Shown here piece after piece: positions 1 to 5,569 of a DNA stretch of 29,037 nt. Where the stretch lies: UHGV virus genome UHGV-0149439; one strand, 5' to 3'. This stretch comes from a virus. Every line of letters starts with the position of its first letter. Within the stretch, counting starts at the first letter, position 1. Made by a program: the position numbers and the translations under genes. The notes under the pieces were generated by a model that was given only the letters and a program-made list of their open reading frames with translations, had not been told where the DNA came from and ran no database searches.

Positions 1-49
1 CGCCGCGGATTGTATCTTCCTGGCATGACGGATCAATGTGTTTTAAGTA

Positions 50-289
50 TTAATGCCACGTCTTTTTGCTCAGGCTTGTTATAGCTGAAATCGCATGTGC
101 TGAATCATCAAAAAGCCGGGTCAGTACAGGAACCCACTGCCTGTTTTTGTACTCAAGCACCTGATGTCCAGGCAGGTCTTTGCTGATGATGGCAAATGTC
201 CTGAGTTCAGGCGTTGGAACAGGGAGTTCGGTGCCAGGCGGGAAATATATTCTTACCCTGGCAATAATCATGTTGTCCATGCTCATCAT
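50..289 (-). CDS. Hypothetical small protein (79 aa from ATG at 289; ORF track opens at GTG 304), directly downstream of the dinI-like gene
   Basis: ATG at 289-287 overlaps the dinI-like stop in an ATGA arrangement (translational coupling); no family recognised. Confidence 0.45.
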   Translation of the reverse strand: MMSMDNMIIARVRIYFPPGTELPVPTPELRTFAIISKDLPGHQVLEYKNRQWVPVLTRLFDDSAHAISAITSLSKKTWH

Positions 290-525
290 TCGTTCACCAG
301 CCACATATCGGCTTCTTCAAACATCTCTTCCAGCATACGGTTAAGTCGTTCTTTTTCGGTCTTTGTGCTGTCGCTGTTTAATGCGTTAGCCTGCATTGGC
401 TTAACTCTCACGTCGGCGTCGGGGAAGATCCGGTGTACGCGCTTTGTCAGCTCGTTAAGAATGATGTTTCTTGCGCCCGGTAGCCCCTCGACATTACGCT
501 TGTCATAAACCAGTTCAACGAACAT
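286..525 (-). CDS. dinI: DinI-family protein (79 aa)
   Basis: Internal Met of track ORF 286..732; translation MFVELVYDK...EEADMWLVNE matches recalled DinI length and C-terminal acidic W-x-V-x-E ending; perfect LexA box 19-38 bp upstream. Confidence 0.8.
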   Translation of the reverse strand: MFVELVYDKRNVEGLPGARNIILNELTKRVHRIFPDADVRVKPMQANALNSDSTKTEKERLNRMLEEMFEEADMWLVNE

Positions 526-543
526 AAAAGCACCCCGGAAAAT

Positions 544-563
544 TACTGTGATTGTATACAGTA
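544..563 (-). promoter_or_regulatory. LexA (SOS) box TACTGTGATTGTATACAGTA upstream of the dinI-like gene
   Basis: Exact CTGT-N8-ACAG core with TA flanks, matching the enterobacterial LexA consensus. Confidence 0.75.
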
Positions 564-567
564 TTTT

Positions 568-587
568 TACTGTAAAAATAAATAGTG
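568..587 (-). promoter_or_regulatory. Possible second, imperfect LexA-like box (CTGT-N8-ATAG)
   Basis: tactgtaaaaataaatagtg; one mismatch in the conserved 3' triplet. Confidence 0.3.
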
Positions 588-645
588 TCAAGGTGAGCGG
601 AGCGCGAAAGGGGGATGTGTTTTTGTTACCCTTAGTTACAAATAG

Positions 646-679
646 AAAAACCCCAGACCGTGAGATCTGGGGTTCTTTT
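646..679. terminator. Bidirectional intrinsic terminator-like hairpin
   Basis: 7-bp stem ccccaga/tctgggg (651-657 / 666-672) flanked by an A-run upstream and a T-rich run downstream. Confidence 0.5.
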
Positions 680-835
680 AAAGTGCACGTGCACTTCACG
701 TGTATATTTTTGTCTTTTCTCGGTCTGCGCACTGTCTGGTCAGTGTCCTTAAGTGGCTGTTTTTATTGCCGCTGTCCGGTTGCAGTCCTATCAAAAGTGC
801 TGGCGGGAGTTGAACCAGCGTCCGTAATCATTTAA

Positions 836-1615
836 CTATCTGTTTTTGTTGAAATCATGTTCATCTATAAAATCCGCGTAGCTTTTGCGTATCCTTTGCT
901 GTATCTGCGCAGTCTTACTATTTTTTGATACTTGGAACATTAAAGCGCCGCGATAAGTATTTTCGTAGGGTTGCTTTCCGTACTCGCGTAGATGATATTG
1001 GCTTGAGTAACTTATAGAAAATTTCTTTCCCTTTGCATCTGAGAAAGTGATTTTTAATGACGGGCCATCAACAATTGTGGGTATTTCACCATTCATAATA
1101 CGTAATGAATTTAATTCGTTTAGCAATATAATTAGAAAAACTGGAGGAAGGATAGTTCTGATTGGTTTTTTTTCTATATTTATGGGTAGCAGATAATTAT
1201 GGGAGTAATAATTTTCTAAGCTATATGGAATGGTTATTCCACCCCCGGATATTTTTATTGATTTATTGTTTGAGTTTTTTCGAGTTTCATACTTTAAATC
1301 AAAAATCTTTGAAATGGAATTTAATTTTTCTTCGGCTGGATATTCCCAAAATAGCTTTACATTTATGGCAGTGCCTAACCCTGAGTTAACTAACTCAGGT
1401 TTGATATCATCTATGGGTATTCTAGCTAGTGGCATGGCTGAATAATGATGCTCATTCATTGAAACTGTGAGCAAATCCAAATCATTAATTAATAATTGTG
1501 GTCTAATTGATTCCTTTCTTTGAACTACTGTTTGCCTAATTGCAAGGTATGCCGCAATTGCTGATAATGTACTAGCAATCAATCCACCGTATGTAACAAA
1601 ACTAGTGTCTGCCAT
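836..1615 (-). CDS. Hypothetical membrane-anchored protein (259 aa), low-GC cargo gene next to the integrase
   Basis: Long ORF with clearly lower GC than flanking genes (by eye, not computed); N-terminal hydrophobic helix (GGLIASTLSAIAAYLAI); no recognisable family. Confidence 0.7.
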   Translation of the reverse strand: MADTSFVTYGGLIASTLSAIAAYLAIRQTVVQRKESIRPQLLINDLDLLTVSMNEHHYSAMPLARIPIDDIKPELVNSGLGTAINVKLFWEYPAEEKLNSISKIFDLKYETRKNSNNKSIKISGGGITIPYSLENYYSHNYLLPINIEKKPIRTILPPVFLIILLNELNSLRIMNGEIPTIVDGPSLKITFSDAKGKKFSISYSSQYHLREYGKQPYENTYRGALMFQVSKNSKTAQIQQRIRKSYADFIDEHDFNKNR

Positions 1616-1656: not shown

Positions 1657-2832
1657 TCAGTTAGTTTTTTTATTCAAGTGGGTAACAGATGTATTGTTAT
1701 CGTATGCTTTAAGATACCTACCGTAATGTCGAAAAAGCATCTCTGGCCCCTTATGCCCCATTTGCCCCGCCAGCCAGAAAAGGTTAACTCCTCGACTGAT
1801 TAGGCGTGTGGCATATGTGTGACGGGTCTGATAGGGATTGCGGTACCTGATACCGGCTTTCCGTAGCGTTGGCACCCACGCTTTTTTCCTTATTGCATCC
1901 GCGCTGGCCCATGGCTTGTATGTCTTTGGATCCTCAAAGACACAGCCATCTTTCATGAAAGTAAAGGGCTTTTGATCGTTAAGTGCGATTATCGCTTCCT
2001 CAGTTAATTCAACTTTGCGAGTTCCCGCCTTAGTTTTCGTACCTTTTGTCACGCCTGAAACACTGGCGCTCTGTACATGCGCCGTCTTCTCAATGAAATC
2101 AATATCCCTCCAGCGGAGTGCGCATAGTTCCGAGCTGCGAAGTCCTGTCTGGATCGCAAATCTGAATAAGTTCTTCCACTGCTTATTGCCTGTTGATGTT
2201 AACAGCGCGTTCACCTCAGCTGGTGACAGCGGATCAACCACATAACTACTTTCTGCCTCTGATTTATCACTTTGGTACCGTGAAGCTGTCACCAGTGATA
2301 CAGGGTTAATCTGAAGCACACCATCCGTCACCGCCTCATCCAAAGCTGAACGCAGGAATGACAGTTGGTTTCGGATAGTCTTTAATGTTGTTTTCTGGTT
2401 CTGGATCCATGTCTTCAGCGCGGCCGGCGTCAACTCACTTGCAGGAAAAATATGAAGTGATGACAGCGCGCTTCGGCATTTCTTATATCCACCAATTGTT
2501 GAAGGGGATAGTTTTCTCGTTTCACAGATAACCAGATACTCGTCCAGGTACATCTTCACCGTTTTGCCTGCGGCAGCGTTGCCGAAAATTTTTAACCGGG
2601 TAGAACGGGGAAAGTATTCTGCATAAACAAATGTCCCCCTCTCGATCTTGTTATGGATTTCGCCGAGTGTGCGCTCGGCGTATTTGATGTTTTTAGGAGT
2701 TACGTCCAGATTAGAAAGGGGCTCACGGCATTTAACCCCTTTATAAGTGAAAGTAATATTGATGGTTTCGCCGTTGCGGTGTTTCCTGATGGTTACGCCG
2801 CGCGGGAGCTTAGGCGATTCTGTCGTGCCCAT
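1657..2832 (-). CDS. int: Tyrosine site-specific integrase (lambda Int family), 391 aa
   Basis: Size and C-terminal catalytic region typical of tyrosine recombinases (R...H-x-x-R...Y arrangement, HTYATRL... context); GAGG Shine-Dalgarno 8 nt upstream; excisionase immediately upstream. Confidence 0.93.
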   Translation of the reverse strand: MGTTESPKLPRGVTIRKHRNGETINITFTYKGVKCREPLSNLDVTPKNIKYAERTLGEIHNKIERGTFVYAEYFPRSTRLKIFGNAAAGKTVKMYLDEYLVICETRKLSPSTIGGYKKCRSALSSLHIFPASELTPAALKTWIQNQKTTLKTIRNQLSFLRSALDEAVTDGVLQINPVSLVTASRYQSDKSEAESSYVVDPLSPAEVNALLTSTGNKQWKNLFRFAIQTGLRSSELCALRWRDIDFIEKTAHVQSASVSGVTKGTKTKAGTRKVELTEEAIIALNDQKPFTFMKDGCVFEDPKTYKPWASADAIRKKAWVPTLRKAGIRYRNPYQTRHTYATRLISRGVNLFWLAGQMGHKGPEMLFRHYGRYLKAYDNNTSVTHLNKKTN

Positions 2833-3011
2833 TTTGCAACCTCATTAAGATCAATCCATCTTTCCTTAACGCCGTCGACCTTTAGCACCTGAACCCCTTC
2901 ACGCCATACTCCACGTTGCACACGTTTGTTGATGGCATCCGGGGTTTCGCCAGTCTCTTTGCAATAAGTTGAGATGGGAACACAATCGAGGCTCAGCATA
3001 TATTTCTCCAT
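2793..3011 (-). CDS. xis: Excisionase-like small DNA-binding protein (72 aa; alternative start at 2999 has a better GGAG Shine-Dalgarno)
   Basis: Small basic protein directly upstream of and overlapping int (40 nt), the classic xis position. Confidence 0.65.
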   Translation of the reverse strand: MEKYMLSLDCVPISTYCKETGETPDAINKRVQRGVWREGVQVLKVDGVKERWIDLNEVAKWARQNRLSSRAA

Positions 3012-3062: not shown

Positions 3063-3614
3063 TTAGTTGGTTTTCTTTAGTCCAAAGTAAAGTCCTGCGG
3101 CTATGCTTATTATGCCTGCAGCTAGAACACCAATAATCCAATAAAATAATGTTATAAATCGTTCTAACTGTTTGTCTGAGTAATCACTCATAACTTTTAA
3201 TGATGTGCTCAATGACTCCATATCTTTCTTCATGAGAGGTAAAGCCATTGCTTTTTCAGGACTATTTCCAAGTATATTATTAAGCGTGGATATCTTTTTC
3301 TGTATGTCATCAACTTTTACTTCCAACGCTTCTATTCGTATATTATCTGGGGTAAGGGTTGAAGTATTTTTTAAGGCACTTAACGTGTTTCTTACCTGAA
3401 ATATCTCATCCCTATAGGTGCTTATTTCGTTCATGAGATGATCTGTATCTATTTTTTTATCATAAGATGTAGGTAATGAAACATTTACTATTGAAGTGGC
3501 TTTATCTTTTATTTCTAAGGTCAAAGGAATGAGTATCGATCCCAAAGCGACCAGCATAAGAATAGGGGATAGTATTGCTATACTCTTTGCTAATGCGTTA
3601 CTTGTAAATGACAT
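3063..3614 (-). CDS. Hypothetical two-TM coiled-coil membrane protein (183 aa), low-GC
   Basis: Hydrophobic helices at both N- and C-termini with a charged heptad-like middle; GAGGGA Shine-Dalgarno before the ATG; TTGCAA -35-like element at 3651-3656. Confidence 0.7.
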   Translation of the reverse strand: MSFTSNALAKSIAILSPILMLVALGSILIPLTLEIKDKATSIVNVSLPTSYDKKIDTDHLMNEISTYRDEIFQVRNTLSALKNTSTLTPDNIRIEALEVKVDDIQKKISTLNNILGNSPEKAMALPLMKKDMESLSTSLKVMSDYSDKQLERFITLFYWIIGVLAAGIISIAAGLYFGLKKTN

Positions 3615-4876: not shown

Positions 4877-5569
4877 TCAGGCGTGACGTTTGAATGATTG
4901 AGATTGGCTTATCATTACTTTCCCAAAAATGTAAAAACGGTGTTCGTTAGTCTTGTCCACGGACCATTCTCTATATTTTGGGTTATCCGATATCACCAAC
5001 AACTTATCAGGTATCATCTGTAATCGTTTGACGTAAATTTTATCATCAAAACCAAATACATAGATTCCATCACCATCGAACTCATGAATAGAGATATCAA
5101 CGAAGAGAAGATCACCAGGCTCGATTGTCTCAGCCATACTGTCGCCTCGAACGTTGATTACCTTTACTTGATCTGCCGTTCTTCCGCCGAACATCGCTAG
5201 CGCACGTTCATTGTTGTATTCGATTGACCTGATGACATCAATGATGTCGCTGCCTTGAATAAAGCCGCCACCAGCACTGGCACTAACATCAAGAATCTCC
5301 ACTCTAAACACAGATCCATCTCCAGAATGTGGATTACTACCACTGTATTCACATACAGTAGTTTTATTTCCACCTGGAGTAAATAGATCAGCAACGCTAA
5401 CGCCTAAAGCTTGAGCATATTTGCTAAGTGATTGTTCAGTAAATGACTTCTGCTTGCCAGTTTCTACACGCGAGATGTTAGCTCCGTCGACACCAACGGC
5501 TTCAGCAAGATCAGCGATTTTTAGACCCTTCGCAGTGCGAAGTTCTCTTATGCGGTTTCCTATGTTCAT
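4877..5569 (-). CDS. cI: CI-type prophage repressor: N-terminal HTH, C-terminal S24 LexA-like autopeptidase (230 aa)
   Basis: N-terminal HTH (IADLAEAVGVDGANISRVETGK); C-terminal region with GDSM (catalytic Ser) and a downstream Lys; divergent from cro. Confidence 0.9.
   Translation of the reverse strand: MNIGNRIRELRTAKGLKIADLAEAVGVDGANISRVETGKQKSFTEQSLSKYAQALGVSVADLFTPGGNKTTVCEYSGSNPHSGDGSVFRVEILDVSASAGGGFIQGSDIIDVIRSIEYNNERALAMFGGRTADQVKVINVRGDSMAETIEPGDLLFVDISIHEFDGDGIYVFGFDDKIYVKRLQMIPDKLLVISDNPKYREWSVDKTNEHRFYIFGKVMISQSQSFKRHA

Follow-up and report, generated by a model that had tools for sequence, protein, structure and literature searches.

Genes and features of the locus

The window, by which we mean the whole stretch of 29,037 nucleotides analysed here (viral genome UHGV-0149439), opens on the left with a short module around a DinI-family gene; the rest of it is a lambdoid prophage. 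The DinI-family gene (286..525, minus strand; Pfam DinI, 2.4e-23) has beside it an 84-aa open reading frame (50-304, minus strand) that gives no Pfam or PHROG match. This frame is found with 97.7% nucleotide identity in the related locus L048 and occurs on Klebsiella plasmids too (window 1-232, about 95%). A LexA-box-like inverted repeat, TACTGTGATTGTATACAGTA, can be read directly from the sequence at 544-563; it overlaps a promoter-like site (591-563) of the DinI-family gene and is kept in all aligned relatives. There follows a bidirectional intrinsic terminator at 646..677, whose 14-pair stem is followed on the minus strand by TTTTTCTATTT and whose fold z ranges from -5.6 to -6.9. This terminator stands at the outer end of an attachment-site arm that we assign below to a relic element. 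The palindrome block with which we are concerned comes next, and a fragment of the 3' end of the tmRNA gene ssrA (798-828) lies about 100 bp from it.

Beyond this fragment the resident prophage has a cargo open reading frame of 259 aa (836-1615, minus strand), which belongs to PHROG 7259, a family of unknown function, and has no Pfam or PADLOC match. The same slot is occupied by other genes in relatives, for example an AAA ATPase in phiNP and an 816-bp open reading frame in LLS. The tyrosine integrase (1657..2832, minus strand) has an N-terminal arm-binding domain (Pfam Arm-DNA-bind_2, PF12167, 2e-23, residues 10-77) together with a Phage_integrase domain (2.6e-17), and it is 92%, 90% and 68% identical to the integrases of phiNP, LLS and LMessi, respectively. 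PF12167 is recognised in the integrases of the window, of LMessi and of the locus L146 with E-values from 2e-23 to 2e-19. Further along are an excisionase (2793..3011, minus strand; PHROG 2917, 3.7e-42), a CI-like repressor (4877-5569, minus strand) and, from about 18.7 kb, the terminase and head genes. A 183-aa open reading frame at 3063-3614 (minus strand) has predicted membrane-like ends; its weak PADLOC matches (PbeC, 2e-4; LmuB, 4e-3) fall over a coiled-coil-like stretch and are probably not meaningful.

The palindrome block

An earlier note on this DNA had pointed to a 14-bp perfect palindrome at 682-695, followed by a CACGTG copy at 697-702, between the bidirectional terminator and the cargo gene. 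Direct reading of the window confirms both elements, the first being AGTGCACGTGCACT, and also their placement between the terminator at 646-677 and the cargo frame at 836-1615. The perfect palindrome is in fact 16 bp long (AAGTGCACGTGCACTT, 681-696), and the sequence across the whole block is GGGGTTCTTTTAAAGTGCACGTGCACTTCACGTGTATATTTTTGTC.

The first question is whether such a palindrome is unusual. Palindromes of at least 16 bp occur on average 0.52 times per dinucleotide shuffle of the window, with 41.5% of the shuffles having at least one, and those of at least 14 bp occur 2.26 times per shuffle. The 16-bp perfect palindrome by itself is within chance expectation, and with 41.5% of shuffles matching it we have dropped palindrome statistics as sole proof of function. 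The functional case therefore rests on context and conservation. The 14-mer AGTGCACGTGCACT has a single occurrence in the window, even when two mismatches are allowed, and CACGTG is seen three times in 29 kb against 7.3 expected, two of these three copies being in the block, 11 bp apart.

Perfect palindromy is lineage-specific. The majority of relatives have AAGTGCACGTGCATTTCACGTGCATAT instead, and the perfect form is limited to a few of them (L048, L146 and L155). The conserved core of the block across relatives is GTGCACGTGCA together with a second ACGTG 11 bp downstream, and this core is invariant in nine sequences that were retrieved without the motif and have 81-92% overall identity. Most of the P-arm examples were retrieved by searching with the block itself, which makes their conservation partly a matter of construction. 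In the nine sequences retrieved otherwise the conservation of the block is 0.95 versus 0.86 overall, a value no higher than that of the rest of the arm up to the core. As to whether the motif is absent from related elements and common by chance, the outcome by which the earlier note proposed to judge its function, the results favour function: the motif is found in 56 viral contigs, 12 species genomes and several sequenced phages, and in the window it is not common by chance, whether judged from the mismatch search, the CACGTG count or the matrix scan described below.

The attachment-site core and the rest of the arms

The ssrA fragment at 798..828 (minus strand) is the core of an attachment site (att). 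It aligns to the annotated ssrA genes of E. coli DX6 and CP-1639 and is without 6 bp, GGTGGA, of the acceptor end; it is not a functional gene. ARAGORN finds no tmRNA in the window, and the Rfam tmRNA match to the fragment reaches 10.3 bits, below the gathering score of 47. The fragment amounts to no more than about 30 bp of the 3' end, and GGTGGA, a part of the acceptor/CCA end, is deleted, so that a complete tmRNA is not encoded here. A search with Rfam at permissive thresholds returns only sub-threshold matches over the terminator and the block besides the 10-bit tmRNA fragment, and no known RNA family fits.

On its integrase side the core adjoins an IHF-like site (829..850, plus strand; CATTTAACTATCTGTTTTTGTT), in the position that H' has in lambda. 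It is the top match in the window of the IHF-like matrix obtained below by expectation maximization (EM), and the IHF consensus is matched at 833 with one mismatch. Between the block and the core are four phased TGTC(T/C) repeats (709..752, plus strand) with an 11-bp phase, which we regard as candidate Xis sites from their sequence. Their GTC[CT] starts are at 712, 723, 734 and 745, exactly 11 bp from one to the next and in phase with the arm sites described below, and there are two further starts, at 774 and 785. The stretch 709-752 ranks with the best-conserved parts of the arm; in an LLS-type arm the corresponding place is taken by three of these repeats. Both the IHF-like motif at +13 and the TGTCY repeats at 709-752 are matches at the level of a consensus only.

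A matrix from the integrase-side arm

Can the block be recognised from sequences that do not contain it? For every fetched locus we take the 130 bp next to the core on its integrase side, remove ssrA bodies and unrelated elements, and dereplicate the set to 37 sequences, which represent the P' arm. A first EM run returns the IHF-like motif, at +13 from the core in 32 of the 37 arms, rather than arm sites, and EM was then repeated on the interval from +40 to +105. The second run gives two tandem 11-bp sites in 37/37 arms, at +60 or +61 counted from where the 17-bp core match ends, with the consensus GCGTATCTTTT GCGTATCCTTT (n=37), in which C2, G3 and the T tract are nearly invariant.

A 22-bp matrix made from these P' arms only (n=37) was scanned along both strands of the window, 58,000 positions in all. 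Rank 1 goes to 876-897 with a score of 32.0. This is the resident prophage's own P' pair, two predicted tandem arm-type sites (GCGTAGCTTTT GCGTATCCTTT, plus strand) inside the last codons of the cargo frame. Rank 2, with a score of 15.8, is 687-708, the palindrome block. The third-best match scores 10.4, against a background of -32.4 +/- 10.1. Over all fetched loci (2.54 million positions) 149 of 149 matches that score at least 15 fall in att arms. Discrimination comes only from the tandem arrangement: a single-site matrix is weakly specific, with 47 matches of at least 8 bits in the window. The interval 670-900 has six such single-site matches against an expectation of about 0.4; they correspond to five distinct sites, of which two overlap. 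It may be added that the last 20 or so codons of the cargo frame run through both the IHF-like site and the P' arm sites.

Predicted arm-type sites in the block

The site unit is 11 bp long and has the form R-C-G-K-n-n-n-Y-T-T-T. Three predicted integrase sites of this kind can be placed in the block. The first direct copy (687..697, plus strand; ACGTGCACTTC; single-site score 9.4 bits) is the right half of the palindrome, and the identical 11-mer serves as a P' site in the locus L119. The second direct copy (698..708, plus strand; ACGTGTATATT; 9.6 bits) starts 11 bp after the first and contains the second CACGTG; relatives have ACGTGCATATT at the same place. The third predicted site is inverted (680..690; ACGTGCACTTT on the minus strand; 11.3 bits) and overlaps the first direct copy by 4 bp. 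The palindrome is thus accounted for, because the inverted copy overlaps the first direct copy and the local site has the self-complementary ACGT/GTGCAC. Other attP types are also palindromic at the position of the inverted copy, with different sequences: GGAGCCGCGGCTCC in LLS, GGAGTCGCGACTCC in L102 and AAATGCACGTGCATTT in L143. Since these sequences differ and yet are palindromic, the palindromy is kept by paired changes. The distance from the start of the direct pair to the core is 118 bp in both attP types and 112 bp in the window, where the 6-bp deletion makes the difference.

We therefore consider it likely, from the sequence comparisons, that the block is a cluster of predicted integrase arm-type sites in the P arm, the one remote from the integrase gene, of an attP that targets the 3' end of ssrA. 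We infer that the ligand of these predicted sites would be the N-terminal Arm-DNA-bind_2 domain of a heterobivalent tyrosine integrase, and that the block would still have some role in this genome. The block is predicted to be an element of a known kind, apparently undescribed in this integrase family. Of the two readings that the earlier note had offered, a regulator site or a recombination boundary, the one that invokes recombination comes close, in view of the arm-type position, the repeats, the occurrence on both arms and the att core about 100 bp away. The boundary itself lies elsewhere, the block being in our prediction an accessory protein-binding cluster within an att arm, and a site for a regulator of transcription finds no support. 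If lambda is a guide, integrase monomers would be anchored both on the P-arm sites and on the matching P' pair and from there bridge to the core; bends of the IHF type and Xis would assist, and the intasome so formed would carry out integration or excision.

Related phages with an intact attP

In sequenced phage genomes the left module is continuous with the integrase side, so that the true attP is visible. LMessi has ACGTGCATTTC ACGTGCATATT on its P arm and AAGTGCATTTT AAGTGCATATC on its P' arm. In phiES15, which is circular and has an annotated attP, the P arm reads ACGTGCATTTC ACGTGTATATT and the P' arm TGGTGCACTTT GCGTGCATATT. The same two-arm pattern is found in PhiR12_1 and in the viral contigs L010 and L030. 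LLS, with an annotated attP that includes a tmRNA pseudogene and with the integrase that is 90% identical to that of the window, shares the layout but has a different version of the motif, GCGGCTCCTTT GCGTATCCTTT, on the P arm at an identical distance from the core (-118 to -97); GGAGCC stands before this pair and completes a 14-bp palindrome together with the first site. With L146 added, the motif occurs on both arms of one attP in LMessi, phiES15, PhiR12_1, L010, L030, L146 and LLS. In L146 the integrase is of the Arm-DNA-bind_2 kind, the core is tRNA-like and the flanks are unrelated, yet GTGCA pairs are found on both arms.

How closely does the sequence of the sites follow the type of the integrase? 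All LMessi-type integrases pair with GTGCA(T/C) sites. At the same time, integrases of the window's type that are identical over residues 1-110 adjoin P' sites that range from GCGTAGCTTTT to GCGTGCATTTT, with GTGCAT in L123 and ACGTGCACTTC in L119. A strict covariation of integrase and site ('type 1' GTGCAT versus 'type 2' GCGTAnC) was considered and rejected, given identical N-terminal domains with varied sites and the intermediates L119, L123 and L101. Site type is not strictly coupled to integrase type, and the argument on specificity therefore rests on a loose consensus. This tolerance suggests, as far as sequence can tell, that the resident integrase could bind the sites on the relic side of the junction.

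The interval 5248-5900 of L146 (an Enterobacterales MAG) contains its tRNA-like 3'-end core three times in 500 bp, with a CACGTG block on the far side and a GTGCAT pair beside the integrase gene. It looks like a set of stacked att remnants at a different target.

Origin of the junction

We turn to the left side of the junction. Its module has the order DinI, terminator, block, a conserved spacer of about 96 bp, and the ssrA 3' end. In E. coli DX6 and CP-1639 the module abuts the intact annotated ssrA, and in both it is the outer end of a prophage. The locus L048 is 97.7% identical to window 1-828 but to the right comes another element, P2-like, with an integrase and a CI repressor; leftwards, the arm is separated from a DUF1440 membrane-protein gene by no more than DinI and the 84-aa frame. 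Most loci with an integrase of the window's type have ordinary bacterial DNA from downstream of ssrA on that side, as is expected for the integrase-side junction of a single prophage, while the window, L036/L126 and L143 have a CACGTG-type arm there instead. The two sides of the junction are thus independent of each other. Since L048 shares the left module with a different right element and most loci of the window's type are without it, the left module is the relic of an earlier phage; the palindrome side being the relic end, the junction is a hybrid of two elements. The earlier note, right about the interval between terminator and cargo gene, had missed that the block belongs to the neighbouring relic element and not to the prophage that bears the cargo.

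The course of events that we propose is as follows. An earlier phage integrated in ssrA would have left its outer end behind, that is, the DinI gene, the terminator, the arm sites and the ssrA 3' end that the phage had supplied. The present prophage (integrase at 1657-2832) would then have integrated into ssrA beside this relic, and in the resulting hybrid junction the core would have the older element's P arm on one side and the newer element's P' arm on the other. The loss of 6 bp from the displaced ssrA end fits a non-functional copy, and small losses of a similar kind are found in L012, L128, L133 and L145. We also asked whether the window could be the genome of a free phage, its own attP being intact. 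This is disfavoured by the damage to the ssrA end and by L048, in which another element follows the left module.

A more far-reaching combination of ideas appears doubtful to us. It would make the overlapping inverted and direct sites a designed P-arm feature of Arm-DNA-bind_2 systems, kept by compensatory change and bound alternatively as a switch between integrative and excisive states; and it would make the relic P arm, the core and the resident P' arm a complete hybrid attP, probably bindable by the resident integrase, whose site tolerance includes ACGTGCACTTC. If such a hybrid attP did exist, excision of the resident prophage could be altered, or the neighbouring relic could be captured or mobilised.

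Alternative explanations

Could the palindrome act as a nucleic-acid hairpin and not as a protein site? It might be a second plus-strand terminator (683-705 plus ATTTTTGTCTTTT) that backs up the one at 646-677 and stops prophage transcription antisense into ssrA, or else a structure of the ssrA 3' trailer. A terminator scan does report a stem of 9 pairs around a 5-nt loop, together with a T run, at 683-705 on the plus strand, although the stem has only four G-C pairs, and the predicted RNA fold is -11.2 kcal/mol (z -3.55) on the plus strand and -9.2 kcal/mol (z -2.66) on the minus strand. The palindromy is moreover kept through G-C, G-T and A-T states (window, majority and L143, respectively), with GGAGCC/GGCTCC versus GGAGTC/GACTCC. 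Yet the same motif pair on the P' arm is often not self-complementary and then unable to fold into a hairpin, as in AAGTGCATTTT AAGTGCATATC or GCGTAGCTTTT GCGTATCCTTT, and the second direct copy lies outside the palindrome and is equally conserved. The window has no plus-strand gene upstream of the block, and a strong terminator already stands 6 bp before it. We judge the hairpin explanation unlikely; a secondary terminator-like role alongside function as arm sites is possible.

The block could also bind some other protein. This might be a recombination directionality factor such as an excisionase, a nucleoid protein of the host, or one that regulates the neighbouring dinI-like gene. Tandem 11-bp repeats in the P arm are typical of Xis-type factors as well, for example X1/X2 of lambda. 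The TorI sites of KplE1 offer a parallel of the Xis type (PMC2951348), and the block is upstream of the dinI promoter region, at a distance of about 120 bp. Against this, the motif occurs on both arms, where Xis-type sites are normally on one, and the four phased TGTCY repeats at 709-752 are a better candidate for Xis. As for a dinI regulator, the LexA-box-like operator at 544-563 is already in place, the terminator separates dinI from the block, and LMessi has the block with only the conserved box region and no annotated dinI. In L146, too, the left flank of the block is unrelated. Binding of another protein in place of the integrase thus seems very unlikely.

That the palindrome is a functionless product of chance in an AT-rich intergenic spacer is barely credible: 41.5% of the shuffles do have a 16-bp palindrome and the perfect form is present in few relatives (L048, L146, L155), but GTGCACGTGCA and the second ACGTG are invariant in the nine motif-independent sequences, the block is present in L146 with unrelated flanks, and a matrix from other sequences picks it out.

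Comparison with known systems

We now compare the predicted cluster of arm-type sites with described att systems. The arm-type sites of lambda attP are P1/P2 and P'1-P'3 (Ross & Landy 1982, cited in PMC2951348), and a structure of the intasome is available (PMC4880445). As in lambda, short sites lie outside the core on both arms and are in tandem on the integrase side, and a separate N-terminal domain of the integrase is of an arm-binding type. A candidate IHF-like site separates the core from the P' sites, and the phased repeats, as candidate Xis sites, fall in the interval from the P sites to the core, as the Xis sites of lambda do. The lambda arm motif is C/AAGTCACTAT, whereas the motif here is R-C-G-K-n-n-n-Y-T-T-T; the N-terminal domain is of another Pfam family (PF12167), and the target is the 3' end of ssrA. 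The layout differs from that of lambda as well, with two direct sites and one overlapping inverted site on the P arm and two sites on the P' arm, a layout predicted here from the sequence.

The IntS/TorI module of KplE1 (CPS-53), at argW, is likewise an E. coli prophage module at a tRNA-type gene (PMC2951348). Its P' arm-type sites and its recombination directionality factor sites, which overlap the int-proximal arm, have been mapped, and this system shows that each integrase family has its own arm motif (PMC2951348). The P' sites of IntS share a TAAA motif (PMC2951348), unlike the CG...TTT seen here, and the target gene and the integrase subfamily are different. In the literature searched, arm sites are described neither for Arm-DNA-bind_2/DUF3596 integrases nor for the related phages.

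As in tandem prophages, successive integration at ssrA joins the end of an older element to the integrase-side arm of a newer one, here as well as in L036/L126, L143 and L048. Tandem prophages that share one att site are reportedly treated by Williams (2003) in 'Traffic at the tmRNA gene'. A general account of them is available (PMC8112680). Unlike usual tandem prophages, the older element here is a short relic, with DinI and a small open reading frame if L048 is a guide, and the displaced ssrA end has lost 6 bp.

An odd-looking palindrome is in our prediction a routine part of a phage attachment site and an ordinary component of integration machinery, and no new mechanism is indicated. The comparison does provide a usable consensus and layout for a widespread family of enterobacterial phages that target ssrA, whose arm sites have seemingly not been mapped before: tandem 11-bp R-C-G-K...TTT pairs at -118 and +60, an IHF-like site at +13, and phased TGTCY repeats. 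Such a layout is of practical help in drawing prophage borders exactly, in spotting stacked or relic elements at the tmRNA gene and in the design of attP substrates.

Other junctions in related genomes

The acceptor-end sequence TGGTGGAGCTGG (window 798-799; also L012, L128, L133 and L145) has small deletions of 6, 5 or 1 bp. These losses recur at the same few bases, in junctions with a displaced, non-functional copy of ssrA.

In L008, L012, L020, L058 and L062 shortened cores connect a CACGTG-type arm with integrase-side arms of other kinds that have tandem repeats of their own, for example CGTGTACCTAAACGTGTACC, which suggests that several integrase types stack at this locus.

A last observation comes from L002 / L046 (E. 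coli Rb-23), where the DinI/arm module, with TGGTGGAGCTGGCGGGAGTT, is joined to DNA beside torT and not to ssrA; this junction may be a secondary attachment site for a phage of the ssrA type.
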